A stretch of DNA of 63,963 bases, the filler included, from Reclinomonas americana ATCC 50394 (Eukaryota): assembly GCA_048213135.1 (NCBI GenBank). It is 12 parts of 9 records of this genome, joined end to end, with 100 filler letters (N's around TTAATTAATTAA, not from the genome) between each part and the next. Parts side by side here need not be neighbours in the genome. Positions count along the whole stretch, not along the records: positions 43,216 to 49,758 come from PS015977.1; positions 49,859 to 53,782 come from PS015978.1; positions 53,883 to 58,988 come from PS015978.1; positions 59,089 to 62,641 come from AFZH01016335.1; 8 more parts are not named here. The stretch is one strand, 5' to 3'. Position numbers and translations under genes: made by a program. The notes beneath the pieces were generated by a model. It did not search any database, was not told the DNA's origin, and worked only from the letters and a program-made list of their open reading frames with translations. Below are positions 266 to 63,118 of this stretch, in pieces. Position 1 is the stretch's first letter. Each line of letters begins with the position of its first letter.

Positions 266-13474
<13,209 letters not shown>

Positions 13475-48639: not shown

Positions 48640-49959
48640 GTAGGCAAAGGGAAGGAGAAGGGGAAGGAGAAGGGGAAGGGGAAGGGGAAGAGGGGGAAGG
48701 GGGGGGGAGAGGGGAAGGGAGGATAAGGGGAAGGGAGGGGATAAGGAGGAAGGGTGGTGAGGGGAAGGAGAGAGAGGGGAAGGGGAAGAAGGGGAAGGGG
48801 AGAGAGGGGAAGTGGAGAGGGGAATGGAAAAGAGGGGAAGGGCAGAAATGGGAAGGGAGGAAGGGGAAGAGAGGAGGGAGGAGGATGGAGGGGGAAGGGA
48901 AGATAGGAAGGCAAGAAGAGCGAGTGATGTACAATGTGGGAAGTGAGAGCAAGACGAAGAAGACATGGAGGGAGGAGATGTGGCCTACAATTAAGGAAGG
49001 CAGAGAAGGACACATAGAATGGTTGGAGAGAACGAGCACTGAGCAGAATCAGAGGCAAAACGAAGGAGGATGGCGGCGAAGTCGAAGAAAGGAAGTTGGT
49101 GAGCATGAATGACACGGGAGACATCAGAAGGAGGATAAAGTAGGGGAATGAGCAACAAGGACATGTTCGAAGAGTGAAGGCTCGTATTTGAAGGCAAGAG
49201 AGAGATGGGGAGAGAGTTGAAAACGTTGGAACAGCAGAGGAACGAGGAGGGTAGTGGAGAACGAGAGACTGAGGGCAAGGGGTACGATAAAGATGAGCAG
49301 CGGACGGGAAGAAGGAGCAGAAGAAGAAAGGGGCATTGAGATGGGGAAGGGAGGAAGGAAGCAATTTGATAGAAAGCAAAGAAGACGGAAGATGACAGAA
49401 GGACGGGAGCGGACAAGTCAGTGACATACTGAAACAACAAGAAAGATGCATCGCATTGTCAGAAGAGCGCAAACGGTGCAACAGAGAAAAACGTGGGGGA
49501 GAAGAGAACAGTGAGGGGAAGGGGAAAGGGAAGGGGACATGTTCGGAAGGCGGCGAAAGAAGAGGATGGAGGTACTCGTTCCTCTCTCCCTCTCTCTCTG
49601 TCTCACTGCCTCTCTCTCTCTCTCATTCTCTCTAGCTTTCTCTCTCTCTCTCTCTCTCTCTACTACTAACCTACTCCTACCCTACCTACTCCTACCTACT
49701 CGACCACGACGACCGTACGGTAGTAACTACCGTAAGGTCGGCCCGGACCTACGTCCGTNNNNNNNNNNNNNNNNNNNNNNNNNNNNNNNNNNNNNNNNNN
49801 NNTTAATTAATTAANNNNNNNNNNNNNNNNNNNNNNNNNNNNNNNNNNNNNNNNNNNNTGCTTCGCCTCCTCTACTCATCTTCGGTAGCAGTACATGGTG
49901 GTTCGAGTCAAGGACTAGAAAATAATGTTTCACTCTTCAAGTATCATTGTCGACAACAA

Positions 49960-50181
49960 ATGGCATCTGCCGCCGACCTCGTCCATGTGCACGCCAGTCA
50001 TATTGATATGCACCAGTTTCGGTTCAAGTGTCCGTTTTGTCCAAGGAGGGCTATACATAGGCATGGAAGTGGAGGCGACCTCTCGAACAGGGAAGAGATG
50101 CGAGGATACCATTGCCATCCCCGGTACAATGACAAGACATTCATGGTCCACATCACTGACCAAACGATCCGGATGACTTGA
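49960..50181 (+). CDS. Small putative Zn-binding viral-type protein (CPFC...HRHGS...HC), 73 aa
   Basis: ATG in ACAACAAATG context with TATCA 13 nt upstream. It has a CxxC motif plus His/Cys ligands. Confidence 0.55.
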   Translation: MASAADLVHVHASHIDMHQFRFKCPFCPRRAIHRHGSGGDLSNREEMRGYHCHPRYNDKTFMVHITDQTIRMT

Positions 50182-50536
50182 CCGCGGAATACGAGCGACG
50201 ATGATAAAGCTTGATGTCGCCAGCCTCCTTTCTCGCCCTCTTCTCTGCCAGCCTTGAGAGTATGTCCTCGCCATCAAGGCCTGGCACCTCTTGGATGCAT
50301 TCGGCCACCAGCGCCTCGTCCAGTCTTCTCGTCTTCATTTGGGTGGCAAGAGAAAAGGTGCCGAAGGTTCCGGCATGCACATCTTCCAGCCCCTGTTGAA
50401 GCATCCAGGTCTGAATCACCTCCATGGCGTCCTCCTGGGCATCCTTCAGTCGTCGCTTGTCCTCTGCGGCCTCCTTCAGCCTTTGCTTGAGCTCACAGAA
50501 CTGGCGGCAGGCGTCCATGACGTGATCGGGAAGCAT
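50153..50536 (-). CDS. DUF5760-like protein (giant-virus-associated family), 127 aa
   Basis: An N-terminal coiled coil (ELKQRLKEAAEDKRRLKDAQ), then IQTWMLQQGLEDVH, G-x-F-x-L-x3-KTRRLDE and a C-terminal helix, which matches my recollection of the DUF5760 pattern. The leader is AT-rich and contains TATCA. Confidence 0.55.
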   Translation of the reverse strand: MLPDHVMDACRQFCELKQRLKEAAEDKRRLKDAQEDAMEVIQTWMLQQGLEDVHAGTFGTFSLATQMKTRRLDEALVAECIQEVPGLDGEDILSRLAEKRARKEAGDIKLYHRRSYSAVKSSGSFGQ

Positions 50537-50584
50537 TTTCGTTTTGGGTTGATATTATAATAAAGAAAAGAATTTATTCGCTCA

Positions 50585-53398
50585 TCAAGGGAGACCCGCT
50601 GTGTAGACCTCGATAGTAAACTGCGCCCAGGCAAAGTCCGTTGCCGTCCCATTGTTATAGGTGACAAACGAAAAGGCATTGCCGAGGCCAGGATCGGCAA
50701 TACCAAGGTCCTTGTTGCTATACCCGCTCGTTGCCGTCATCACCATGTTGATCTTCTGCACGATGGTGTTAACCGCTCCAAACAGCGTGCCGGTGCCGTC
50801 GTAGAGTCTGTACTGGCCTGCCGCCGTGCGTTGAAAGCCAATCTGCGTTGATGACGGCGAGTTGGAGCTCACCATCGTCAGTGTGGTGCCGCCGTCAAAG
50901 CGCTGGATCCAACTTCCAACGAGAGAGCCGTTCTCGATGCGGAACCTGATAACCACCGCATACGGCACACTGCCTCCCGCCGCTGCCCAGGTGTAGTCGC
51001 CTCTCAAAAAGTTGGAGGAGCTGTTCCCGCTCGATGCCGCAATGGAGGTCAGCTTGCTGTTCAGAGGCTGCTTCTCCGCATCCAACTCGGCAATGGCCGC
51101 CTGCACTGTGGTCGATGAAATGCCGCCAGTGGGTGTAAAGCCAACATCCGATGCGCCCAGCGAGGCGACGGGAATCCATGTGGAGCCGTCGACGCATGCC
51201 TCCAGTTTCGATGTGGTGGTGTTGAAGCGCAAAAGACCAGCGGCGGCGGTTGGCCGCTGAGCAGTCGTTCCACGCGGGAGAATGATGCCATCAACGCGAG
51301 CGCCCATGTCCAGCGACACTGCCGGGTCTTCGGTATCGAGGCCGAGTTTCGCTCCATTGTCGATGCAGAACACAGTGTCGTTGTCCGTGTCGGTGACAAC
51401 CATAATGGGTGCGCTGCCGCTGGCCTGCACGGCGAGGGCCGGATCGCCGCCTCCGATGGTCGCCACGAGCAGCTTGTCGACGGTGGTGATGAGGCTGTTC
51501 ACGCTCGTCGCAGTGCCATTCACGGTGAGATTGCCCTCCACCGTCAGGCCGCCAGAGATGGTGCCGCCGGTGAGCGGCAAACGGGTGCCAAGCTGCCCAA
51601 AGGTGCAGGCGTCTGTCGATGTGGTGCCGTTCGCGAGGCCGGTGATCTTCTGCGAGTTCATGGCGAGACCGGCCACGGAAAGAGCATCGGTAGACAGAGT
51701 GGCGCTCACCCTCGTGCCGGAGATGGTCGATCCGCTCGAGTTGTAGACCACCTCGCGCAAAGAGTATGTCGCCGATGCGCCCACCGTGAGCTTTGCGGGC
51801 GATGCGTCGAGGTTGAGGAGACTCACATTGGACAACACCAGGGAGCCTCCATTGGCGGTGACGGCCGAGGAGGAGGTGGAGGCGGCGAATATGGGAGAGT
51901 TGGAGACACCGAGCACACCAGTGGTCAGCGTCATCGGCAGAGAGGTGGAGCAATCACGCACAGTCACCACGGCCGCCGAGTTGTTCACCGTGAGAGAACC
52001 CATCTTGGTGCCATTGAGGAACACGCAAGAGCCGCTGCCTGTGATGGAGATGGTGGCGGTGTTGGTGTTGCCCGTCAATGAGCAGTAGTTGCATTCGAGA
52101 TAGCCGCTGCCGCTCTTGTTGAGTGCGGTGAGAGTGGAGCAGTTGGTGAGGTACAAGGTGCCGCTGCCCGAGTGTGCAATGGTGGCAACGCTGATGCCGA
52201 TGACGCGAACAGAGCCGACCGAGTTGAACGTAAGTGTCCCGGTGAAGTTGACAATCCCGCCCGTCTCGCCGCTCAGCGCAGTGATGGTGACATTCTGCTG
52301 TGTGATGGCGGTGTCTGCAGCATAGGTGCCTGGCATGATGACGACCACGCGGCCGCTGTTGCCCGCAAGAGTGCATCCTTGTGCAAGAGTGGCCACCGCC
52401 GACTGCTCGCATCGGCCGTTGTTGGCGTCGTTTCCGGTGGCGGCGGAGACATAGACGGCATTGTTGAACACATTGTCGAGTGCGCCCATGGTGCCCACTG
52501 AAGGTATGGAAGGGAATGAGGCCAAGGAGAGATCGCCTCTAAAGTATTGCGAGGTGGTGCCCGTGGTGATGACATTCTGCTTGCTTGTTTGCAGAGTGGT
52601 GATGGCGGATCCCTGGCTGGCCGTCGTCGACTGGAGGGTGGTGATGGCGGATCCCTGGCTCGCCGTTGTGGATTGCAGCGATGTAATCGATGCCCCTTGG
52701 CTCGCCGTCGTGGATTGCAGAGTTGTGATGGCGGATCCTTGGCTGGCGGTCGTGGATTGAAGAGTGGAGATGGCCGATGAGTATCCACTCACCGTCGACT
52801 GGAGAGTGGCCACAGAAGACTCGACCGATGAGAGATCTCCCTCGATGGTGTTGATCTCTTCCTCGACGCTTTGCAGATCGGTGGAGAGCGCAGAGACATT
52901 GGATTGCACCGAGGTGATTGCCGTTCCCTGGCTTGACACGGTGCTCTGCAGCGAAGAAATGGCGCTGGTGTTGGTGCCGATCTGAATCCCTTGTGCCGTT
53001 GTTGTGCTTTGCAGAGAGGAGATGGATGCCCCTTGGCTGGATGCCGTCGACTGAAGGGCGGAGATGGCGGAGGAGTTTCCACTCACCGTCGACTGGAGAG
53101 TGGTGATGCTTCCCTCTGCGGTGGTGACTCGGCCGGCCAGCGAGGCCTGTTGCGACGCGACTGTATCGAGGTTTGCCCCATTGGAACTCATGACCGAACC
53201 GGCTGTTAATGAGCCACCCACCGTCGCATTGCCCTGCAGCAAGAGTCTGGCCTCGCCGGTAATGTCGGATGTTGCGCGGATGGTGCTGGCGAGGAGTGGT
53301 TGGCCTGGAACATACGCACCGGACTCGTTGATGAGCTCGACTACTGCATCGTACACCCCTGGTCGATTCCATGGCACGGTGTCTTGAGGATCCGTCAT
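50585..53398 (-). CDS. Mosaic fibre / tail-fibre-like adhesin, 937 aa (probable start MTDPQD at 53398)
   Basis: It has 14-aa coiled-coil repeats (ITTLQSTTASQGSA), GTTSQYFRGD and SSNFLRGD fibre motifs, a beta-helix start (VYVSAATGNDANNG..TLAQG..VVIMPGTY), a YadA-stalk-like KITGLANGTTSTDA, LPLTGGTISG, LPRGTTAQRP..LRFNTT..DGSTW and TVQAAIAELDAEKQP. AATAAA lies 6 nt after the stop. Confidence 0.8.
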   Translation of the reverse strand: MTDPQDTVPWNRPGVYDAVVELINESGAYVPGQPLLASTIRATSDITGEARLLLQGNATVGGSLTAGSVMSSNGANLDTVASQQASLAGRVTTAEGSITTLQSTVSGNSSAISALQSTASSQGASISSLQSTTTAQGIQIGTNTSAISSLQSTVSSQGTAITSVQSNVSALSTDLQSVEEEINTIEGDLSSVESSVATLQSTVSGYSSAISTLQSTTASQGSAITTLQSTTASQGASITSLQSTTASQGSAITTLQSTTASQGSAITTLQTSKQNVITTGTTSQYFRGDLSLASFPSIPSVGTMGALDNVFNNAVYVSAATGNDANNGRCEQSAVATLAQGCTLAGNSGRVVVIMPGTYAADTAITQQNVTITALSGETGGIVNFTGTLTFNSVGSVRVIGISVATIAHSGSGTLYLTNCSTLTALNKSGSGYLECNYCSLTGNTNTATISITGSGSCVFLNGTKMGSLTVNNSAAVVTVRDCSTSLPMTLTTGVLGVSNSPIFAASTSSSAVTANGGSLVLSNVSLLNLDASPAKLTVGASATYSLREVVYNSSGSTISGTRVSATLSTDALSVAGLAMNSQKITGLANGTTSTDACTFGQLGTRLPLTGGTISGGLTVEGNLTVNGTATSVNSLITTVDKLLVATIGGGDPALAVQASGSAPIMVVTDTDNDTVFCIDNGAKLGLDTEDPAVSLDMGARVDGIILPRGTTAQRPTAAAGLLRFNTTTSKLEACVDGSTWIPVASLGASDVGFTPTGGISSTTVQAAIAELDAEKQPLNSKLTSIAASSGNSSSNFLRGDYTWAAAGGSVPYAVVIRFRIENGSLVGSWIQRFDGGTTLTMVSSNSPSSTQIGFQRTAAGQYRLYDGTGTLFGAVNTIVQKINMVMTATSGYSNKDLGIADPGLGNAFSFVTYNNGTATDFAWAQFTIEVYTAGLP

Positions 53399-53444
53399 GG
53401 TGAGATGATGGTAAACCCCAGAGATTATTATTTGTGCAGTGAGT

Positions 53445-53782
53445 TTATCGTTGCATGTCGGAATCATTGATCGCCGCTGGTGTCGTCGCGGCCGCCGCCG
53501 CCGCCGTTGTCGTCGCTCTCCCTTCTTCCCCTGCAACTCCATCCCCTCTTCCTCTTCCTCTCCCTTCCCCTTCCCCATCCCCTCTCCCTCTCCCTCCTCC
53601 AACACCGACACCGATACCGCCTCCAACGCCGATGCCGATGCCGATGCCGACACCGACACCGACGCCGACGCCCGATCCAGAGCGCGGGCGAAACCGCTTT
53701 CCGTTGATGGCCTCCGAGTACGTCATCCATCGGGAGGAGGGACTATCCATATTCGCCAGCCTGCCTGCAGTGATCCTCGGTC
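53445..53782 (-). CDS. Probable C-terminal part of a Gly-rich protein, open toward the contig end
   Basis: The frame GSGVGVGVGVGIGIGIG..GRGRGDG..INDSDMQR* stops 46 nt before the fibre ATG, which matches the element's gene spacing. Confidence 0.4.
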
Positions 53783-54435
53783 NNNNNNNNNNNNNNNNNN
53801 NNNNNNNNNNNNNNNNNNNNNNNNNNTTAATTAATTAANNNNNNNNNNNNNNNNNNNNNNNNNNNNNNNNNNNNNNNNNNNNGTGTACCTCTCGCGAGTG
53901 ATATCGATGTCGCTGTTCTTGCTGTTGTTCTTGTTGTCCAGTGCACCAGTCGATAGTACTAGTGCAGCAGAGGTGGTTCTTGTTTTCGTTGACGCTGTAG
54001 CGGCGATGGATCCGGAGGTTTATGTTGTGGCGGTGGTGGTGGTGGTGGTGGTGGTGATGGGGGCGATGGTGATGGTGGGGTTGGGGGGTGGTTGATGAAC
54101 CTTCTTGTGCTGCCTTGTTGGTGTAAAGCGATGAGGAATATGAAGGGCAAAACAGGTGCAAAAATAGAAGTACCTTGCTTTCGCTCTCAGACGAGTAGAA
54201 AAAGAATGATGAGGACAAAAAGCGATGCGCGAGTCTTTTATGGACGAGATTTCCCGCCACCGACTAGCTCGCGAGTGCTCGCGTGCGCTTCAATGCGCGG
54301 TCACGACCAGGAATCCTCAAATACGTCTGAGCTCAGTGCCAGACGCAGATACTAGGTGTCGCGAATAAAATCTAAAGCCTTCATTATGTTGACCATCACA
54401 TGTCATGTTACCGACTGATGCAGATAGATGAAAGA

Positions 54436-55047
54436 CTAATGCATCACCGCCCGATTTGGGATGAAGAGTGCATGTTCGAGTGGTGTTCCCGCCAACAGTC
54501 GCAGAGCGGTGGTGTGTGCGTTGGAGCCCATCCACGTGGAGGTATCTCCTGTGCGCACAATGATGTGGAAGAGGTGATGCACCGGAACGAGTGAGAGACG
54601 CTGACTCACAGTGCCATCACTTTTCACCGCCGCATGAGTGCCCCGCGCATGGATGCTCCTGTGCACCACCCCACCCATCCACTGAATGAGCTCGCGGCGT
54701 CGGAAGCAGAGCGCCTCTGTGCCCTCTTCCACATTCATCCCCCATTGCATCGCCGGAAGCGCATCATGGAAACAGGAGGCCACCAAGTTGGAGATTGCCG
54801 CACATATGCGCTCTGCCTCCATGCGTGTGTCGGTGGCAATGGCTCGTCTTGAGCGCAGGATGACAGAGAGGAAGGTGGGAATGTCGATGGTGATCTCTGC
54901 GGATCCGGATCGTCGAGGACGCGAGGGGTGCTCCATGTTTCGCAGTGAGCTCTGGATGACGCGCACATCGACCATCTCGGTGAGCCGCTCCACGCACTGG
55001 CGCACAGTGACCAAGGCGGCCTCGAGTTGTTGGCGAGAGATATCCAT
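54436..55047 (-). CDS. Hypothetical protein of the element, 203 aa (start MDISRQ)
   Basis: Intron-less ORF 49 nt downstream of the integrase stop, with TATCA 9 nt upstream of its ATG. No recognisable domain. Confidence 0.6.
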   Translation of the reverse strand: MDISRQQLEAALVTVRQCVERLTEMVDVRVIQSSLRNMEHPSRPRRSGSAEITIDIPTFLSVILRSRRAIATDTRMEAERICAAISNLVASCFHDALPAMQWGMNVEEGTEALCFRRRELIQWMGGVVHRSIHARGTHAAVKSDGTVSQRLSLVPVHHLFHIIVRTGDTSTWMGSNAHTTALRLLAGTPLEHALFIPNRAVMH

Positions 55048-55096
55048 GGAAGGAGATGATATGTGGTGTGCGAGTAAAATTTTCATTGTCATCAAT

Positions 55097-56962
55097 CTAC
55101 TTGTTCGCGGCGAGTCTCGACGACCTGCGCTGGCCCGATGCACGCGCCGCCAGCTCGGCATCAAACTCGGCTCTCACTCGCTCCTTGGTCTTGGCGTCGA
55201 GGCCCGAGCGGTTGCCTGAGCGTGAGACAATCATCAGCGGCTTCTTGGTCTTCTTCTTTTCCTTCGGGATCGACATCACCAGCGGCGTTGGCGGAGGCGG
55301 TGGTTGCGCTCGAGGTGTTGGTGGCTTGGGAGCGGGAGGAGGAGGAGGAGGCGGCGTCGGTGGTGGTGTTGGTGGTGGAGTCGGAGCGGGAGTTGGAGGA
55401 GGAGCGGATGATGATGATGATGGAGGAAGGCCAGCGGAGCGGCGAGCGGCCGCCTCTTGCACACCATTCTGGCGCAGAGTGACGAATCGCCGCCACTGTT
55501 GCACCAGGGGGAACGGCAGATGCTTGTCGCGCCTCACTTGCTCGTCCAAAGCACTGGTTGGTGGCGGTGGAGGCGAGGCCGAGTCGAGCAGCGCCTTGTT
55601 CACTCGTTGCAGTTGGCCAAAGTAGAACCATGTGAGCGACGGCTCATCGGCCACCGATGGCAGCACCATCCACAGTTGCGCCTGCGCCTTGCGTTCCCCC
55701 GCCTTGCCCTGCACCACATTCCACACCTCATAGATCTCCGTCGACCAGGTCTGCCAGCGCTTCTTCTCCTGGTCCGTCGCGGCTCGATAACTTTTGTCGG
55801 TGGCCGCCGACACACGCACCCAGTCGCCCACCCGCAGCATGTCGGACCTTCCAGAGTTGAGCATGGCCTTTTCGCGCGTTACCTTCAGTGCTCTGTTCAC
55901 CACCGCTCTCGCAGCAGCCGCCGTGGCTCTCCGTTTGCCAACCAAGTCGTCGACATTTTGATCGTCGCCCTTGATTTGTTGCTCCGGTGCCACCAGCGAG
56001 GGCACGGGAAGCGAGCGCGCCGTGGCCACCTCCAACGGACGATGACGTGTGCTCTTTTGCTGGGTGGTGTTGATGGCGAACTCGACGCGCAGCAGGAGCG
56101 AGGGCCAGTCGCGGGTGGCCGTGGCCTTCATCGCCCTTTTCAACAGCGAGCGCACCGCCTGATTGGTTCGCTCCGCCAGTCCATTGCCACGTGAGTTGTA
56201 GGGGTTGGTCGTCTGTTGCTTGATTCCATAGCGCTGACAGAGGGCAGTGAAGATGGCGTTGCGGTACTCCTGGCCATTGTCGTGCACCAGCATTTTCGGC
56301 GCACCCCACTCGAGGATGATGCCTTCCATGGCGTCCGACATGGGCTTGCTTGCCTTTTGCGTCAGAGCACGGAGCCACACCTGCTTGGAGAACCCGTCCA
56401 CCGTCGTCATGATGTACCGCTTGCCCTTGTAGGCCTCCGAGGCCATGTCGATGAGGTCGGTGAACCAGGTTTCGAAGGGTGCGTTCAATCTTGCACCGAG
56501 TGAGGCGTTGACCACGGGACCTGGAGCGACTGGGCGACGGAACACGGCGGTGGTCTCCTGTCCATGCTTGACGAACTCGGCGACGAATCGACGCGACACA
56601 CCCACCACCACCTCATTGACGCGGCGCGAGAGCTCGGCGGCACCCAATCCCTGCCCGAACCCGGTTGTCGGCAATCGCACAAATGCGCGCAGCCACTCGC
56701 CTCTCCGGTCCATGGGGATCACCGGCAAGGAGCGCCGTTGCCCATCGATCAAGGCGAGCACCGCTAGCTTGGGCGTCTTGCTGTTGCCTCTGCCTTCCCA
56801 CCCGAGCAGCTGGAAGTAGGGCATCACGGAGAGGAAGGCGTCCCTTTGTCGTGTGGTGGGAAATGTCGGTGTGGTACCATCAGTGAGGAAGGTGGCAATG
56901 GCCTTGACCATGGCTGGAGTGTACTGCACCGTTTGCACTCGTCGTAGCGCTGATGCGTCCAT
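55097..56962 (-). CDS. Retroviral-like (rve, DDE) integrase of Polinton/Maverick type, 621 aa
   Basis: Catalytic triad in WFTDLIDM, LVHDNGQEY and NGLAERTNQ. It also has GKRYIMTTVDGFSK, INTTQQKST.HRP, the Polinton-type GDWVRVS...WSTEIYEV C-terminal domain and an N-terminal GVSRRFVAEFVK. No gag, RT or RNase H is adjacent. Confidence 0.92.
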   Translation of the reverse strand: MDASALRRVQTVQYTPAMVKAIATFLTDGTTPTFPTTRQRDAFLSVMPYFQLLGWEGRGNSKTPKLAVLALIDGQRRSLPVIPMDRRGEWLRAFVRLPTTGFGQGLGAAELSRRVNEVVVGVSRRFVAEFVKHGQETTAVFRRPVAPGPVVNASLGARLNAPFETWFTDLIDMASEAYKGKRYIMTTVDGFSKQVWLRALTQKASKPMSDAMEGIILEWGAPKMLVHDNGQEYRNAIFTALCQRYGIKQQTTNPYNSRGNGLAERTNQAVRSLLKRAMKATATRDWPSLLLRVEFAINTTQQKSTRHRPLEVATARSLPVPSLVAPEQQIKGDDQNVDDLVGKRRATAAAARAVVNRALKVTREKAMLNSGRSDMLRVGDWVRVSAATDKSYRAATDQEKKRWQTWSTEIYEVWNVVQGKAGERKAQAQLWMVLPSVADEPSLTWFYFGQLQRVNKALLDSASPPPPPTSALDEQVRRDKHLPFPLVQQWRRFVTLRQNGVQEAAARRSAGLPPSSSSSAPPPTPAPTPPPTPPPTPPPPPPPAPKPPTPRAQPPPPPTPLVMSIPKEKKKTKKPLMIVSRSGNRSGLDAKTKERVRAEFDAELAARASGQRRSSRLAANK

Positions 56963-57017
56963 TGTCTGGATATGATATTTTATTGTGCCGTCTTTTATCT
57001 AGTGGTTGAGCATCGCC
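56963..57017. promoter_or_regulatory. 55-bp AT-rich bidirectional promoter between the integrase and the membrane-protein gene
   Basis: The divergent ATGs are 55 bp apart. The gap contains AATAAAAATATCA on the minus strand and TTTTTATCTA on the plus strand. Confidence 0.55.
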
Positions 57018-58967
57018 ATGGACGACGATTCACTCGCTCTCGTCGGTGGCATTGCTGTCGCTGTTGCCGCTCTGGCGCTTGCCTCCTCTTCTTCCTCCTC
57101 CTCCTCCACGATTCGCCCTCCTGTGCCCCCGCGACCGCTCCCTCTACCGCCCGCCGATGGAGGAGGTGGCTCTGGAGGAGGTGCTGGTGGTGGTTCTGGC
57201 GGTGATGCTGGTGGCTCTGGAGGTTCCGATGGAGGTGGTGGAGGTCCGCTCATTCCTGTTGATCCGTCGCCACAGCCTTATCCATACCCTGTTCCTCCTC
57301 CTGTTCCCGTCCCGATTCCGCCTACGCCGATCCCTATTCCGCCAACACCGATGCCGCAACCAACACCGATCCCTGTTCCCGCTCCGCAACCAACTCCGCA
57401 ACCAACACCGACACCAGCGCCGACACCAACACCGATTCCATCACCGACTCCAACGCCGACACCAGCGCCGACACCGCAACCAACACCGACACCGGTACCG
57501 CAACCAACACCGCAACCAGCACCGCAACCAACACCGACTCCTCCGATGCCGCCGAGTCTCCCTCCCTACACGCCCAAGCCGGGACCAGACAATCCCTTCC
57601 TGCCACCAGAGGATGAGATGCCGCCTTTCGAGCCGCCAACGTACACACCATGGCCGGAAGTACCAAACCCACCGACGACACGCAACTCCTTTCCGGAGAA
57701 TGCCGAGGAGTATGTCATTGACCGTGCCAGTGCGCTGAAGCCGATCTTCTTGACAAACGCCGACTTTGTGAAGCTGCGCAAGGATCAGCACTACAAGTAC
57801 GCGTGGACGAGAGGAGCAGGCATTCCTGGCGAGAAAGGTGACTCACCCACTGCGCGACGAGTGTTGGAGCTGTGCTATGAGAACCTGAAGGGCTTCAACA
57901 CCGAGCTGGCCAAGCAAGGGAGATGGAACGAGCAGATTCCGCTCGTGCACTTGCAGGCCAAGGTGAGTGTCAACGACAACAAGAACTGCCCATTCTACTC
58001 GATGCAGTTTTACGCACCGTATGCCGATCGTGTGCTGTTCCAACCGGAGGTGGGGCCGGAATCATTGGCGCTGGACCACTGGGACTGGGAGGTGGTGGGT
58101 GCCGTCCATCCCACCCGCAATGTGTTGACTCGAGGCGCAGAAGGCTTCCTCGTCTACTCCTTCCCTCTGCCACTGCAAGATCCGAGCTCCATCTACTTTC
58201 CACCGCAGGGCAATGTGCTCTACGTGCCAATCCCCACCATGATTGGTTGGTTCCCGTATGAGTGGCACCAACCAATGCCCGGTGGGTGGAGCTACCACTA
58301 TGTGGGAGACGACTACTCGATGGGAACCACCCGCCAAGTGTTCATGCTTGTTCCCAACCTTGCAAGCGATGGAGATCATCAGGGAGGAGTGATAGAGCTC
58401 GTCGATGTGGCAGGCTGGGACAAGAAGGGGTATGTGAAGAGCTCGTTGCAGTCAGTCAACGGCCTCTGGTGGTACTCGATGGAGGGTGGATTCCAGCGTG
58501 TGGAGACCTCTTCCTCTCTCCCCTCTTCCTCTCTCCCCTCTCCCTCTCCCTCTCCCTCTCCGGCACCCATGGCCGAGCGAACGATGCTCTCGATGTGGGT
58601 GGACGGTGCTCTCACTCCCATTGCTCTGGACGCTTCTCAACTCGCTGCCTATACTCTGCTCACCACCAACAGCGGCCGTGTGATTCCTATGCCTGTGCGA
58701 CGAGAGGACGAGGGAGTGGTGGGACTTGTCAATGCTTCGCTGCTCGTCGATGACGACATGGATGTCTCGATGCACGGATTCAGTGTGGACGCCACACGAC
58801 TCTCCCGAGACTGGTATGTGGCTGAAGGAGTGCTGTGCCACCCGACGAAGCTGGTGACGCCAGCGGATGTGAGAGCATGGGCGGAGAGTGGCGTGATCAG
58901 AGGACTTTATGCTCCTGCGACGGTATCGGTGTTCCCTCGCTCCCTTCTTGCCGCTCTCATGGGATGA
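57018..58967 (+). CDS. Membrane-anchored or secreted protein with Gly and Pro/Thr-rich stalk and unknown C-terminal domains, 649 aa
   Basis: The ATG at 57018 is followed by the hydrophobic segment [18 protein letters not shown], then (PTP/PQP)n repeats and about 400 aa of aromatic-rich globular sequence. It has no introns. Confidence 0.75.
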
Positions 58968-59113
58968 AGGATGGCGGGAGGCGAAGCANNNNNNNNNNNN
59001 NNNNNNNNNNNNNNNNNNNNNNNNNNNNNNNNTTAATTAATTAANNNNNNNNNNNNNNNNNNNNNNNNNNNNNNNNNNNNNNNNNNNNCTCGCCTCACTC
59101 GCCTCCCTCGCAG

Positions 59114-59637
59114 AATGAGGTGGTGCATCGTGACATCAAGCCCTCCAATGTGCTTCTCGATCACCGATTGGAGCCATGTCTCGGTGACTTTGGCATTGCA
59201 CGGTCGATTGCAGATGGCAAGGTGTGTTTCCATTCAATTCTTCTCTCTTTCCCCCTGTCTCAGTTTCTCTCGCCTCGCAGACAACAACCGCCGCCGGCAC
59301 ACTGGACTACATGGACCCACTGGCGTTGCGCGTGAGGACGCCGGATCCGGAGCACGACGTGTACAGCATGGGCATTGTGCTGGTGCAGCTCGTCACTGGC
59401 AAGCCCGTGGCGACGGTGGTGGATTGGTCCGTGAGATGGGATCGCTCTGCTGCCTCGTTGCACCCCATGGAGCTGCTGGATGGAGGGGCAGAGTGGACGC
59501 CGCGCATCGCTGAACCGATGTTCGAACTCGGCATGCGCTGTATGAGTGTGCGTCGCGATCGGCCAACTTCGCAGGAGGTGCTTGATGTGATGCGTGCACT
59601 GCGCGAGGCTTGTGGGCAGTTCACGCTGGAACTGTGA
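59114..59637 (+). CDS. 3' end of RLK/Pelle(IRAK)-like Ser/Thr kinase, paralog 1
   Basis: Exon 59114-59221 encodes VVHRDIKPSNVLLD..LGDFGIAR. Exon 59281-59637 encodes AGTLDYMDP..DVYSMGIVLVQLVTGK..RRDRPT..*. Confidence 0.9.
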
Positions 59638-60007
59638 GATGAATGCAGGTTGTGTTGTTCAAGGGGTATTCGTGCAGAAGATGAACGTGGAGACGAATGC
59701 GGGCGGGGTTGCGTGCAAGAGATCAAGGGCCCGGGATCGTCAATTGTCGCGGTCGACGTCGATGTTGTTGTGTTTGTTGTATACGCAGAGGAGGTTGAGG
59801 AGCAGTGTTTTGTGGCGAATGTGTTGGCTTTCTCCTTGCCAGTGAGGAAGCAACAGGACGACGTCGCATGTGCAAACCCTGTCCGCGAAAACAAGAGGAC
59901 ATACAGGATCATACAGAAAAAAGGCAGTGCGCGAGGCGAAAGGGAGCGAGTGTGTGTGTGTGTTTGTGAGAGAGAGAGCACGCTGCTGTTATTCCCTCTC
60001 AAAGAAA

Positions 60008-62508
60008 ATGAGGTGGACTGTGATGTTGTCAGGTGGCATTCTCACTCTCACTCTCACTCGCGCTTCTGCTTTTGCCTCTTTGGTAACAGTGCTCCTCGGA
60101 AGAAAGCATTCGAGATGGCGAAGGATGGCGATGTGAAAGCACTGCGCGAGTTGGTGGCGCGTGAGGGCGCACAAACACTGCTGAAGAGAGAGGAGATGGG
60201 AAGTGCTGGCTGGTCGGCATTTTTCTGGGCCGCTCGGAGAGGCCATCTCCCTGTGTTGGAGTATTTGTGGGAGGAGAGTGGTGTCGGGCCACAACTCGCA
60301 CAGATGACCGACAACGCTGGCTGGACGCCACTGATAGTGGCTGCCTACTGTGGGCGCCTGCAAGTGCTGGAGTGGTTGCTTGCCGATGAGCGACGATGTC
60401 CGCCGCAGATGGTGCGGGCGGTCACCAATGATCATGCCAGCTATCCACAGTCTACTGCTCTGCATTATGCTGCCGCGGATGGCCACGAAGCCATTGTGCA
60501 ACTCCTCGCCACTCGCTATCCCGACCTCATTCCCATGGTCAACAAGTCGGGCAAGACAGCGGCTCAGTGGGCACGCGAACGAGGCAAGCAGCAAGTGGCC
60601 GACTTGCTCGATCGCCTCGCTGCACAACAAGCACCACCACGCCAACAACAACAACAGCAGCCGCGATCCCCGCCTCCTGCAGGTATGACCTCTATTATGT
60701 CTGTTGGCATAATGTGTTCGTGCTCACGCTCCACCACCTGTGGTTTGTCCTGGTGTGTCGTTTCTGGCGAAACATTCAGTGCCAGCACGCCAGGTGAGAC
60801 GGAGAGCGCCACTCTCTCTGCTTCTTGTTGCTCGTGAAACTCACTTCTCGCATCCGTTCCGTGTCTCCCTCGCACTCTCGTAAATATACAGTCGGATGTT
60901 GATGACCCCACCGTCGCACGCCAGCTCGCCGACAAGGACGCACTCCTTGTGCAACTCCAGCGCGATCTCACCGCAGCACAGCAGGAGCGAGAGCAACAGC
61001 AGCGGGAGTGGGACCGACAGCGACGAGATCTCGAAGACATTGTCGCCCAACTACAGCAAGCCAATGCAGTGCTCGAACAGGGGAGGGCCGAGGAGCAGGA
61101 GAAGAATGCCCAAATTCAGCGCATCAGCACTGAAAGCCAGCAGCAAGTCGCCCAACTGCAGGAGGTGGTCGGCGAATGGCGACGAGCTCATGCCAGTGAG
61201 CAGCAGAAGAATGCCCAACTTCAACAAGCCAGCACGGAGTGGCAGCGTGCTCATGCCAGCGAGCAGCAGAAGAATGCCCAGTTGCAGCAATCCAATGCGG
61301 AGTGGCAACAAGCTCATGGCCAACTGCAGCAAGCTCATGGCCAACTGCAGCAAGCTCACGGCCAACTGCAGGCTCTGTTGACTGCAGCTCTGCTTGACAA
61401 GGACTCTCTCACCGCACAGCTGCAAGAAAGGGATCAACTCATCTCCCAGCTGCGACAGGATCTTCTCCTCACCCAAGGTGCGTCTCTCGTCCTCTTTCTT
61501 TCTTCATGTCAGTGTTCAACGTCCTCCATTCTCACCCATCTCTGTCTTCCCATTACCCACTCTGCCACAGTCGACACCGCCGTCCAGCGTTTCGAGTGGC
61601 CCGAAATCATGCAAGCCACCGACTCATTCTCCCCACGCCTCAAGGTCGGCGAAGGTGGCCAGGGTGCTGTCTTCGTCACTCTGCTGCGCGAGATGCATGT
61701 GGCCATCAAGGTCCTCGATCCCGAGGCACCGTGGACGATGGAGTCGTTTGAGAGTGAGGTCTGTGACTCTCTTCCTCTCCTTATTCTTCCCTAGGCCTCT
61801 CCTTCTCTCCTCATGCTTGTTCCGTTTGCACAGGTGGCAACACTCGGACGCCTGCGTGACCGTCGCATTGTGCCTCTTGTCGGCTACTCGGTTGGCGACG
61901 ACAAGGCACGCTGTCTCGTGTACAAGGCCCTGCAGTGCGTGTTCCTCTCTGTCGCCTTCTCATCCATTATCGTCTCACTGTGAAAGCACACAGAGTTCCC
62001 AACCTGGAGGATCTCTTGCTGCTGCCCCGCGCCGGTCGTGCACCACTCACGGTCCTGCAGCGTGTGCAGATTGGTCTCGGACTGGCCGAGGCTGTGGTGT
62101 TCTTGCACAAGGTCTGTGCGATGTGGAAACCATCCTCCATCTCCCGTTCAGCCTCTCCGTCACCCGAGCTCTCAGTTCTGCACTCTCTTCCTCTTCTCTC
62201 CTCGTCACTCTTTCGCTGTTCTTGTCTCTCCCACTCTCACCTATTCTCTCTGAATAGCCCTTGCTATCTATTCATGCCCTTTTCTCTCCTCTCTCCTTGC
62301 CGCACTCGTGCTGTTCGTGTCTCTCCAAGTGTCTCTGACTTTCTCATTTTCGCTGCTGTTTCTCATGCTTTGTTCCTTGCCTCACTTGCCAGTCTCGCAG
62401 AATAAGGTGGTGCACCGCGACATCAAGCCCTCCAATGTGCTTCTCGATCACCGTTTCGAGCCATGTCTCGGTGACTTTGGCATTGCACGGTCGATTGCCG
62501 ATGGCAAG
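60008..62508 (+). CDS. Ankyrin repeat + coiled-coil + RLK/Pelle(IRAK)-like kinase, paralog 2 (last kinase exon absent)
   Basis: In-frame exons: 60008-60012, 60090-60682 (ANK), 60780-60793 (14-nt microexon), 60892-61477 (coiled coil), 61571-61758 (FEWPEIMQATDSFS..KVGEGGQGAVF..VAIK), 61834-61934, 61994-62111 and 62401-62508 (HRDIKPSN, DFG). Confidence 0.88.
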
Positions 62509-63118
62509 GTTTGTTGGCTTTCGTTCTCTCTCTCTCTCTCTCTCTCTGCTGTACCGTACATCCGCCTTGGCCGTACAGCAGAACAAGCACCACCACGCCA
62601 ACAACAACAACAGCAGCCGCGACTCCCCGCCTCCTGCAGGTNNNNNNNNNNNNNNNNNNNNNNNNNNNNNNNNNNNNNNNNNNNNTTAATTAATTAANNN
62701 NNNNNNNNNNNNNNNNNNNNNNNNNNNNNNNNNNNNNNNNNAACAGTAGTTTTGCGAAAGAAAAAGCAATGGCCGGCGGTGTTTTTTTCTCGACTGACCC
62801 TCACAGAGCATGAGTCGTTCCCCCCTCCACACACGCGTATCGAGCTGCAGTGAGGCATGCCTCGTGTTGCATGCCTCACTGTTTGTACAGTATAATAGTT
62901 GATAGTCGCGTGTTTTTTTCGTCCTCCTCGAATCGATACTCATTTGTTTCTTGCGCTCTTGTGTGTTTGTTTGCTTGTTTGCGTGTGTGTGCTTGCTTGT
63001 GCATGTACTCGCCTTCCCCCGCTTGTTCGCCGTTTATCGACATTTGCTGCTGTTGCTGGTTGCGTTTGTTCCCTCTCGCCCTCCTCTCCTCGGCTGTCTT
63101 CACGTTTTCCTGTTGTAG

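Follow-up and report, generated by a model that had tools for sequence, protein, structure and literature searches.

Two of the 12 separate contigs in the window, the 63,963-nt stretch of Reclinomonas americana ATCC 50394 DNA analyzed here, carry a stand-alone integrase gene, a long fibre gene and several smaller ORFs. We refer to these contigs as pieces A and B and detected the following features:

49859..53782, no strand: piece A, 3924 bp (GC 0.584), a contig of its own without host-like flank
49960..50181, plus strand: 73-aa Cys/His-rich ORF from the ORF list, a tentative gene call
50153..50536, minus strand: ORF for a 127-aa small helical protein (Pfam DUF7307 E 0.0093, below the cut-off)
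50585..53578, minus strand: fibre gene (997 aa when read from the first ATG), called from its ORF, repeat, Pfam and PHROGs matches and relatives
53399..53454, no strand: 56-nt spacer (GC 0.41) from which the fibre and stalk genes diverge, with TTATTTGTGC 18 nt before the ATG
53455..53782, plus strand: 5´ part of a second stalk gene, 109 codons truncated by the contig end, with a hydrophobic N-terminus and a Pro-rich stalk
53883..58988, no strand: piece B, 5106 bp (GC 0.592), likewise a contig of its own
53883..54435, no strand: left end of piece B, 553 bp of non-coding DNA with a (GTG)n microsatellite
54436..55161, minus strand: 241-aa ORF with a 65-nt overlap with the integrase stop, a tentative gene call
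55097..56962, minus strand: 621-aa stand-alone integrase with an N-domain (1-136), an rve core, an SH3-like domain (364-456) and a Pro-rich basic tail
56963..57017, no strand: 55-nt spacer (GC 0.40) from which the integrase and 649-aa genes diverge, with TTATTGTGC 30 nt before the ATG
57018..58967, plus strand: 649-aa protein with a hydrophobic N-terminus, a Gly-rich then Pro/Thr-rich stalk and a C-terminal part

The ORFs are real, intron-less and uninterrupted under the standard code (997, 621, 649, 241 and 127 aa), coding is dense in both pieces, and the intergenic distances are short, with spacers of 48, 56 and 55 nt that are AT-rich (GC 0.25-0.41 versus 0.58-0.59 for the pieces). This dense, intron-less gene packing is virus-like. 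The neighboring pieces look eukaryotic, as the original prediction had it, with CT/TCT microsatellites as well as ankyrin and Cep192/ASH exon-like ORFs. That prediction also described two consecutive pieces and an abrupt switch from host DNA. However, because A and B are separate contigs joined by artificial spacers (44 N, TTAATTAATTAA and 44 N), the "abrupt switch" is a contig boundary, and the adjacency and order of the pieces are without support, only the N/TTAATTAATTAA spacers connecting them. As assembled, A and B are unlinked contigs, an outcome named beforehand as speaking against a provirus. Piece A showed no DNA similarity to other window pieces apart from low-complexity matches. We saw no terminal inverted repeat (TIR), target site duplication (TSD) or host junction on the two pieces, both of which are incomplete contigs, nor direct repeats at the contig ends; a complete Polinton-type element would be a unit of 14-40 kb with TIRs at its ends and TSDs of 5-6 bp. 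The left end of piece B could be either the end region of an element or host flank.

The stalk genes nevertheless tie the two contigs to each other. In the 649-aa protein the stalk extends to about residue 215 and is followed by a 435-aa C-terminal part for which no relatives were detected; its AlphaFold2 model (mean pLDDT 35.0) is too low in confidence for use. Of the membrane-anchored stalk protein proposed for this ORF, the hydrophobic N-terminus and the Pro/Thr-rich stretch are present, while the anchoring is putative. The truncated piece A gene matches the 649-aa ORF (BLASTP E 1e-4), has the same architecture and shares with it RN.FP..A.EYVI.R at the start of the globular part. From these sequence comparisons the two genes appear to be paralogues and, since piece A ends within its copy, A and B cannot abut directly. 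The spacers of the two genes are also similar: the motif TTATT(N)GTGC, picked after inspection of both, is found in the whole 64 kb only in these two (53399..53454 and 56963..57017). A paralogue-like stalk gene behind a similar spacer in piece A thus associates the contig of the fibre with that of the integrase.

The presence of an intact DDE rve integrase free of RT or gag held on closer analysis. The 621-aa ORF matched Pfam PF00665 (rve) with an E of 3.2e-15 and 56.6 bits versus a cut-off of 32.6, and the catalytic triad is complete (D169, D228 and E264, in invariant or near-invariant columns of 16- and 97-row alignments). The best PDB match was the prototype foamy virus integrase (E 1e-11). 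Pfam detected no RT, gag, H2C2, OTU or chromodomain in the protein; upstream of it, RT, RNase H, protease and gag are all lacking, and no such RT, RNase H or gag domain was found on the piece B contig. With HMMs from which the window row was left out, an N-terminal domain was detected at residues 1-136 (profile positions 1-129, E 6.9e-15) and an SH3-like C-domain at residues 364-456 (E 2.2e-18), with the pattern VGD.VR ... WS..IY.V ... Y.L. Judged by this architecture, the window integrase belongs to a stand-alone family with an N-domain, a DDE core and an SH3-like C-domain, defined in the present analysis as a family of small eukaryotic DNA viruses. A domain scan of 97 proteins (96 hits no longer than 700 aa plus the window integrase) found H2C2 in six, a chromodomain in six and OTU in one; in some relatives of the window integrase the chromodomain is C-terminal.

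The rve catalytic core is also common to the integrases of LTR retroelements (Ty3/gypsy, spumaviruses), and core-only trees do not separate the two. The original prediction had held that a grouping with LTR retroelements would count against it, and on this point the trees gave a divided answer. In a 147-row core tree, the window integrase fell among 62 rows that form a set starred at 95, with 45 polyproteins and 16 other short proteins, apart from the N-domain family. In a 44-row tree, it was sister to P0005, beside the family (SH-aLRT 88, not starred), and for the same set an AU test did not reject a clade with RT-type integrases (p 0.743), the likelihood of the RT-constrained tree being higher by 9.49. 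The catalytic-core phylogeny would thus be compatible with a place among LTR-retroelement integrases. The gene might accordingly be read as the remnant of an LTR retroelement pol gene lying by chance beside unrelated ORFs, a reading that could also draw on the best-scoring hit overall, a 2120-aa polyprotein. We consider this very improbable. The score of that hit adds up three integrase copies, and the window integrase is without the H2C2 finger and, as noted, without upstream RT, RNase H, protease and gag or direct repeats at the contig ends. The ORF has its own ATG after the 55-nt AT-rich spacer and a divergent gene, a layout that is not that of a retroelement. Moreover, its N-terminal 136 residues fit the full profile of the stand-alone family, as in viral stand-alone integrases, whereas polyproteins match only the second half, with an E of 1e-7 or weaker.

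The genomic context of relatives in IMG/VR points to viruses. Twelve loci carry an integrase with the full N-domain, and in half of them (L020, L027, L030, L032, L033 and L046) a Pox_A32-type ATPase is present. These ATPase-bearing contigs are 10-25 kb, the size of virophages or Polinton-like viruses (PLVs), and one of them, L020, is recorded as a genome of 24.8 kb that bears direct terminal repeats; the integrases from packaging-ATPase loci are only 21-29% identical to the window integrase. Four of the 12 are giant-virus bins (L023, L026) or contigs of 152-175 kb (L024, L031), and the remaining two, L022 and L035, measure 18-20 kb and carry a helicase of the origin-binding type. Integrases that came up in the same search but are more distant adjoin a double-jelly-roll (DJR) capsid gene (L025) or, in L029, major and minor capsid genes of the Sputnik type. 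A scan of 10 related loci (E <= 1e-5) turned up neither a protein-primed PolB nor an adenain-type protease. The same architecture on A32-ATPase contigs of virophage/PLV size and on giant-virus-like contigs bears out the proposal of a stand-alone rve enzyme.

Stand-alone rve integrases are found in transposons too, and one of the 96 short relatives has an OTU protease domain. Piece B could then be non-viral, a cut-and-paste DNA transposon or a copy that has been domesticated, Ginger/TDD-like or of a new family, with an rve integrase and two or three passenger ORFs, and piece A would be unrelated. The separate contigs, the lack of linked capsid or replication genes and the ambiguous placement of the integrase in the core trees and AU test are what such a transposon would leave. 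Ginger1 and Ginger2-TDD transposons have an H2C2 finger in the integrase, and Ginger1 has an OTU/ULP protease. In contrast, the window ORFs have neither H2C2 nor OTU, the N-domain of the integrase is of the type found on viral contigs, and the link between the two contigs through the stalk genes and their spacers argues against an unrelated piece A. We therefore regard a transposon as quite unlikely.

Most of the smaller ORFs are without relatives. No known family was found for the 73-aa Cys/His-rich ORF (best Pfam E 0.01), for which an alternative frame (49925-50176, 83 aa) has a codon-position GC untypical of the other ORFs. The 241-aa ORF had no relatives, and its AlphaFold2 model (mean pLDDT 33.2) is too low in confidence for use. 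A tblastn comparison of 1711 ORFs from 68 related loci with the window gave matches only at the integrase and the fibre, and in these loci we found no relatives of the 83-, 127-, 241- and 649-aa ORFs or the partial paralogue, leaving the anchored Pro/Thr-stalk proteins without a counterpart. The 127-aa protein had been labeled DUF5760-like. This label was not sustained by Pfam, where DUF5760 (PF19064) gave no match even at E <= 10, and its sole basis is a language-model lead from an ESM Atlas feature search, which scored 0.93 to clusters of both DUF5760 (Nucleocytoviricota) and DUF7307 (Uroviricota) and flagged the family call as uncertain. The protein is possibly a DUF5760/DUF7307-like small viral protein.

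The DUF5760 clusters nearest the 127-aa ORF are mostly from Nucleocytoviricota, and this bears on a further reading, in which A and B would be parts of a giant virus, whether endogenous or co-assembled, or of a provirophage inside a giant-virus insertion. The integrase, the fibre and the small DUF5760-like protein would then be giant-virus genes and not those of a free-standing small element. The full-N-domain integrases in giant-virus bins and on the 152-kb and 175-kb contigs fit with this, the latter two (L024, L031) carrying giant-virus-like genes for HSP90, Ras, ABC1 kinase, SNF2, RING and DUF5824. However, giant-virus hallmark genes were detected neither in the 9 kb of pieces A and B nor in the other window pieces, the DUF5760 link is the uncertain lead described above, and the GC of 0.58-0.59 is far from the 0.30-0.33 of L024 and L031. 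A giant-virus origin is, in our view, unlikely.

The 997-aa ORF is fibre-like, as predicted, with matches to coiled-coil-type Pfam families and phage tail PHROGs. An ATG at 53398 is the more likely start and would give a protein of about 937 aa. The protein is made up of an N-terminal part, 14-aa coiled-coil repeats encoded by a 42-nt tandem repeat, a beta-helix domain, modules of the phage tail-fibre type and, at the C-terminus, a head. The beta-helix part has relatives (P0165-P0171) with 32-44% identity and is 39% identical (E 1.5e-50) to an ORF (9392-11413) of L069, a myovirus-like tailed-phage contig on which the ORF follows Baseplate_J, Mu gp48 and baseplate-hub genes. Cyanophage tail-fibre genes match a module of ~130-190 aa with 32-37% identity, and 51 cyanophage records match the fibre, some of them annotated tail fiber. 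These relatives confirm the phage-like mosaic make-up that had been proposed. Homology to the tail fibres and tailspikes of tailed phages spans the protein in parts only: no phage tail-fibre match was seen for the N-terminal part, for the shaft of 14-aa repeats or for the last 170 residues. Since the closest beta-helix relative of known context is in a tailed-phage contig, the fibre alone is no pointer to a eukaryotic virus.

Another fibre relative lies on a 2961-bp contig of an alphaproteobacterial MAG. Together with the tailed-phage context of the fibre modules and the lack of a host junction on both pieces, this could suggest bacterial or phage contamination, and not the eukaryote, as the source of one contig or of both. 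We judge this very improbable. The genomic neighbors of the window fibre are not phage genes, unlike those of tailed-phage fibres, the integrase had no tblastn match in 50,697 phage records, and its family has eukaryotic-virus-like contexts. The GC and low-complexity style (Pro/Thr, Gly and Ser runs) also match other window contigs, and phage-like fibres are known in PLVs, for which PMC12220804 describes them as usual.

The virion genes that the original prediction expected to be linked to the integrase were not found in the 9 kb or the rest of the window. Using Pfam, PHROGs and tblastn, we found no DJR major capsid or penton gene in the 9 kb or the other 10 pieces, with methods that divergent major capsid proteins escape. 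An FtsK/A32-type packaging ATPase was not found within the window, nor was a polymerase (pPolB), primase-helicase or maturation protease in the 9 kb or the other 10 pieces. In mavirus-type virophages and Maverick/Polinton elements, a retroviral-type integrase serves chromosomal integration. The window element resembles these in having such an integrase, a likeness drawn from descriptions of these elements, and differs from them in that the window has no protein-primed PolB or adenain-type protease and the integrase has no chromodomain.

The closest likeness is to endogenous PLV/virophage-like elements of protists. As surveyed in PMC10120064 and PMC12220804, these elements combine, like pieces A and B, an rve integrase that stands alone and a long fibre of the bacteriophage type with intron-less, tightly packed genes, many without relatives, on short separate contigs, into which they usually break in short-read assemblies (PMC10120064). 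The two pieces differ in that neither a DJR capsid or penton gene nor an ATPase, a replication gene or a TIR was seen in them. They also differ in the fibre, in which Pfam detected no Peptidase_S74 chaperone domain, called ubiquitous in PMC12220804. Because no capsid gene is present, the two contigs have the look of an endogenous virus-like element of the ordinary kind, in fragments. An "undescribed lineage" was an overstatement, as PMC12220804 already describes PLVs that combine an rve integrase and a fibre of the bacteriophage type. What stands of the original prediction are the ORFs and short spacers, the stand-alone integrase, the mosaic fibre and the virus-like packing; the adjacency of the pieces and their linkage, the abrupt switch, the DUF5760 label, the virion genes and the new lineage are without support here.

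Collectively, these data suggest that the pieces are probably fragments of a PLV/virophage-like integrating element, a reading to which we give a probability of roughly 0.55. The two contigs could represent one element or two related copies of an integrating dsDNA virus-like element of the virophage, Polinton-like-virus and Maverick supergroup in a GC-rich, eukaryotic (protist-like) genome assembly. We infer that A and B belong together, with a capsid module elsewhere in the assembly, and that the element is integrated; the functional roles proposed here are all of the same kind. The stand-alone DDE integrase, with its N-terminal DNA-binding-like domain, rve core and SH3-like C-domain, would insert the linear element into host chromosomes. 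A long trimeric-type fibre on the particle would bind the host cell surface, and the paralogous stalk proteins (hydrophobic anchor, Pro/Thr stalk) may be membrane-anchored or surface-exposed. Finally, the GC of the pieces (0.58-0.59) is close to that of the other window contigs (0.53-0.59), unlike that of 14 loci of relatives (0.24-0.48), which fits a resident, host-adapted element.

Pieces A and B can be read, with a probability of about 0.55, as fragments of an integrating element of the virophage/Polinton-like virus (PLV)/Maverick supergroup, or of two related copies. This reading is based on the integrase family and the contexts in which it occurs, the fibre, the gene packing and the published observation (PMC10120064) that short-read assemblies of protists split such elements over short, separate contigs. 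The capsid and replication modules of the element would be on other contigs.

Features of piece A (contig 9, 49859-53782, 3924 bp, GC 0.584) and piece B (contig 10, 53883-58988, 5106 bp, GC 0.592)
49960-50181, + strand, piece A: doubtful small Cys/His-rich ORF of 73 aa (83 aa in another frame)
50153-50536, - strand, piece A: 127-aa ORF, standard code
50585-53578, - strand, piece A: 997-aa fibre ORF, standard code
53455-53782, + strand, piece A: first 109 codons of a stalk gene cut by the contig end
piece B: non-coding stretch of 553 bp carrying a (GTG)n repeat
54436-55161, - strand, piece B: 241-aa ORF, standard code
55097-56962, - strand, piece B: 621-aa integrase ORF, standard code
57018-58967, + strand, piece B: 649-aa ORF, divergent from the integrase across a 55-nt spacer

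The original description of densely packed ORFs that lack introns and lie some 50 bp from one another was correct: the long ORFs are read in the standard code, and the two divergent spacers measure 55 nt and, if the ATG at 53398 is the fibre start, 56 nt between the fibre and truncated stalk genes. Open frames of 600-1000 codons cannot be due to chance, since by our own estimate about 3% stop codons are expected in DNA of such composition. The GC content is 0.25-0.41 in three spacers, as against 0.60-0.73 at third codon positions of the long ORFs. One of the spacers (50537-50584, 48 nt, GC 0.25), running from the fibre stop to the start of the 127-aa ORF, has on the gene strand AATAAA, resembling a poly(A) signal, and then TATAATAT, resembling a TATA element. 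The sequence TTATT(N)GTGC occurs at two sites in the whole 64 kb window, one per divergent spacer (53428-53437 and 56980-56988), both on the + strand and preceding the two paralogous anchored-stalk genes by 18 and 30 nt. The motif may be a promoter element, though this is a hint only, because it was selected after both spacers had been inspected; when aligned, the two spacers matched poorly and revealed no conserved promoter beyond this post hoc 9-10 nt motif.

Twelve separate contigs make up the 63,963-base window, each divided from the next by an artificial spacer of 44 N, TTAATTAATTAA and 44 N. What was earlier described as two consecutive pieces switching abruptly from host sequence to intron-less ORFs is thus a contig boundary, and the window does not give the mutual order or adjacency of the two pieces. 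Among the window pieces, blastn detected no real similarity between A and B or between either and the others, and the search for inverted repeats inside A and B returned low-complexity matches only. An Rfam scan of the whole window gave no match, and none of the reads from one public DNA run (0.05 share of words) could be placed on piece B. The sole evidence tying the pieces together is an apparent stalk-gene family. The 649-aa protein starts with a hydrophobic N-terminus, continues with Gly-rich and Pro/Thr-rich stretches as far as about residue 215 and ends in a C-terminal part of 435 residues. The truncated gene of piece A shares this build, together with the motif that comes first in the globular part (E 1e-4), so that the two contigs have a gene family in common. 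Given the truncated stalk gene at the end of A and the 649-aa gene of B, the pieces cannot directly abut. It is improbable, in our estimate, that B is a plain integrase transposon and A an unrelated fibre contig.

The remaining ten pieces (GC 0.53-0.59) look eukaryotic because of their CT/TCT microsatellites and exon-like ORFs with ankyrin and Cep192/ASH domains (27878-28750, 4423-4854 and 9041-9706, all on the - strand). Pieces A and B have the GC content of these neighbouring contigs, unlike the loci of 14 relatives, which lie far lower at 0.24-0.48, and this suggests a host-adapted resident rather than a passing contaminant. Bacterial or phage contamination is the least probable of the explanations we considered. 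Other features of the neighbouring contigs were also recorded. Piece 11 (59089-62641) has a 173-nt direct repeat, 87% identical, at both ends (contig positions 1-173 and 3288-3459), which could be LTR-like or segmental, together with an ankyrin-repeat open frame of 399 codons (59638-60834, + strand, no ATG required) and a 63-nt tandem repeat at 61173-61355. The very low GC in the composition profile of pieces 1 and 5 is due to long N runs, i.e. scaffold gaps, at 2884-3680, 32031-32384 and 32976-33632.

The 621-aa protein matched the Pfam rve family (E 3.2e-15, 56.6 bits, cut-off 32.6), while the RT, RNase H, gag, H2C2 and chromo families of Pfam were all unmatched. D169, D228 and E264 fall in conserved columns of a 16-sequence alignment, and the prediction of an intact rve integrase without RT or gag therefore held. 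The best relative of solved structure was a foamy-virus integrase (E 1e-11). A full HMMER search of 1.84 billion representatives was run with residues 1-460, as an earlier word-index search had been swamped by the Pro-rich tail (3 weak matches). It gave 28,935 matches at E <= 0.001, just three of them at E <= 1e-30, and the best full-length match, P0005 (562 aa, encoded on a 19,741-bp contig), is 30% identical; the integrase thus appears to have no known close relative among these representatives. When we scanned the 96 proteins of <=700 aa among the best 150 matches, plus the window protein, for domains, all 97 had rve, six had H2C2, six a chromodomain and one an OTU protease domain. The architecture common to the 16 aligned sequences is an N-terminal domain (N-domain) of ~135 residues, the DDE core and a C-terminal SH3-like domain. 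Profiles from which the window sequence was excluded matched it at residues 1-136 for the N-domain (E 6.9e-15, whole profile) and residues 364-456 for the C-domain (E 2.2e-18). RT-bearing polyproteins matched the N-domain profile weakly and in its second half only.

Phylogenies restricted to the catalytic core disagree with the virophage/PLV-type assignment drawn from architecture and context. In a 147-row tree, the window integrase fell in a starred set (SH-aLRT 95) of 62 rows, comprising 45 long polyproteins and 16 other short proteins besides the window protein, apart from 71 N-domain proteins. In a 44-row tree from which eight long-branch rows were omitted, it was sister to P0005 on the N-domain side, on a branch that was not starred. 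An AU test did not reject a clade of the window integrase with RT-type integrases (p 0.743), the constrained tree having a likelihood higher by 9.49. The 147-row grouping and the AU result are among the points for a retroelement remnant, a reading that we nevertheless consider very improbable. The rows of the core trees include no named Polinton, mavirus or Ginger references; the assignment of the integrase rests on domain architecture and gene context.

As to context, viral-contig searches with the window integrase or P0005 as query detected no relatives, and a metagenome-contig search with P0005 returned three short contigs only, none of them the 19.7-kb one that encodes P0005. A closer alignment of family members (A4) led to 48 IMG/VR loci, of which 12 have the full N-domain integrase. 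Six of the 12 (L020, L027, L030, L032, L033 and L046) carry a Pox_A32-type packaging ATPase, two (L022 and L035) are 18-20 kb contigs with an origin-binding-type helicase, and four (L023, L026, L024 and L031) are giant-virus bins or contigs as large as 152 and 175 kb that carry HSP90, Ras, ABC1, SNF2, RING and DUF5824 genes. More distant integrases from the same search adjoin a double-jelly-roll (DJR) capsid gene and an A32 ATPase (L025) or Sputnik-type major and minor capsid genes (L029). The best score against the window integrase among the related loci was that of L020 (phmmer E 2e-31), part, with L070, of a 24,772-bp record (G001) with direct terminal repeats that looks like a complete small viral genome. 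It encodes the integrase with an A32-like ATPase next to it, an AEP primase, a D12 methyltransferase and an S74-chaperone fibre. No capsid gene was recognised in the record by Pfam or PDB sequence searches. Its 523-aa ORF (L070 5290-6861), a candidate, had no capsid match in them either; a search of the record with Pfam PF21738 and PF21915 gave no match, as did that search's own controls. No pPolB or adenain was found at E <= 1e-5 in ten scanned related loci, and the window integrase is absent from 50,697 phage records. Judged by architecture and gene context, it is probably of a type found in virophage/PLV-like viruses and some giant viruses. The 733-aa integrases of the same N-domain family on the AT-rich contigs L024 (4991-7189) and L031 (9779-11977), with HSP90, Ras, ABC1 kinase, SNF2 and RING genes among their neighbours, may be genes of giant viruses or remnants of provirophages. 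That pieces A and B are themselves a fragment of an endogenous giant virus is a reading we regard as unlikely.

The fibre was predicted to be a phage-like mosaic, as its parts bear out. An N-terminal part without matches is followed by a shaft built of 4.5 copies of a 14-aa repeat (42-nt period), with coiled-coil-type Pfam and PHROG matches. Next come a domain of ~290 residues that reads as beta-helix-like, with 39-44% identity to stretches of seven large metagenomic proteins, and a module that matches the tail-fibre genes of 51 cyanophage records at 32-37% identity; the C-terminal head is again unmatched. For the beta-helix-like part, the one relative whose context is readable, in L069 (E 1.5e-50), sits after Baseplate_J, Mu gp48 and baseplate-hub genes on a contig of a tailed phage, and the fibre alone is therefore no proof of a eukaryotic virus. 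It is compatible with a PLV, since bacteriophage-like fibre proteins, often >1000 aa, are described as usual PLV components in PMC12220804. A viral-contig search with the fibre relative P0165 found no relatives, and a genome-contig search with the fibre alignment found one 2961-bp contig. The closest fibre relatives (P0165, P0166 and P0169) are on 17-20 kb contigs, those bearing P0165 being up to 19,725 bp and of the same source type (JGI) as the contig of P0005.

For the remaining ORFs, comparison with the 1711 ORFs of 68 related loci, which match the window at the integrase and fibre only, revealed no relative of the 649-aa, truncated paralogous, 127-aa or 241-aa ORFs. The C-terminal part of the 649-aa protein had no relative in a 5.8-billion-protein index, the ESM Atlas, Pfam (E <= 10) or the PDB, nor did the ORF in a viral-contig search. 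AlphaFold2 without alignments gave unusable models (mean pLDDT 35.0 for this part and 33.2 for the 241-aa ORF). The 127-aa ORF, originally called DUF5760-like, had no Pfam DUF5760 match; its nearest ESM Atlas clusters (0.93) are DUF5760 (mostly Nucleocytoviricota) or DUF7307 (mostly Uroviricota), labels carried by at most about half of the cluster members and marked by the tool as an unsure family call. In all, neither the billions of proteins that were searched nor the 68 related loci contain a homologue of four of the seven ORFs. Because of this, and because no capsid gene was seen, a non-canonical, new lineage without a DJR capsid remains conceivable in this GC-rich protist, though as a long shot, combining a virophage/PLV-family integrase, a phage-type fibre and a multigene family of membrane-anchored, mucin-like stalks. 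Such a lineage might form particles that are enveloped or carried by vesicles, or might remodel surfaces.

If the virophage/PLV/Maverick reading holds, the element is divergent, new but of a documented type. There is good documentation already of endogenous PLV/virophage-like elements that carry an rve integrase and phage-like fibres; the integrase and phage-like fibre of PLVs are reported in PMC12220804, and short-read fragmentation in PMC10120064. What is unusual is the high GC, an integrase <=30% identical over its full length to any relative, and the anchored Pro/Thr-stalk gene family, whose paralogues travel with the element. The element opens no long-standing question. In practice it is of modest value, its intact integrase and fibre flagging contigs worth joining. 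Virophage-/PLV-like elements can serve as inducible defences against giant viruses. If confirmed, the element would extend the known virophage-/PLV-like invasion of protist genomes to one further host lineage and to a host-adapted form of unusually high GC.
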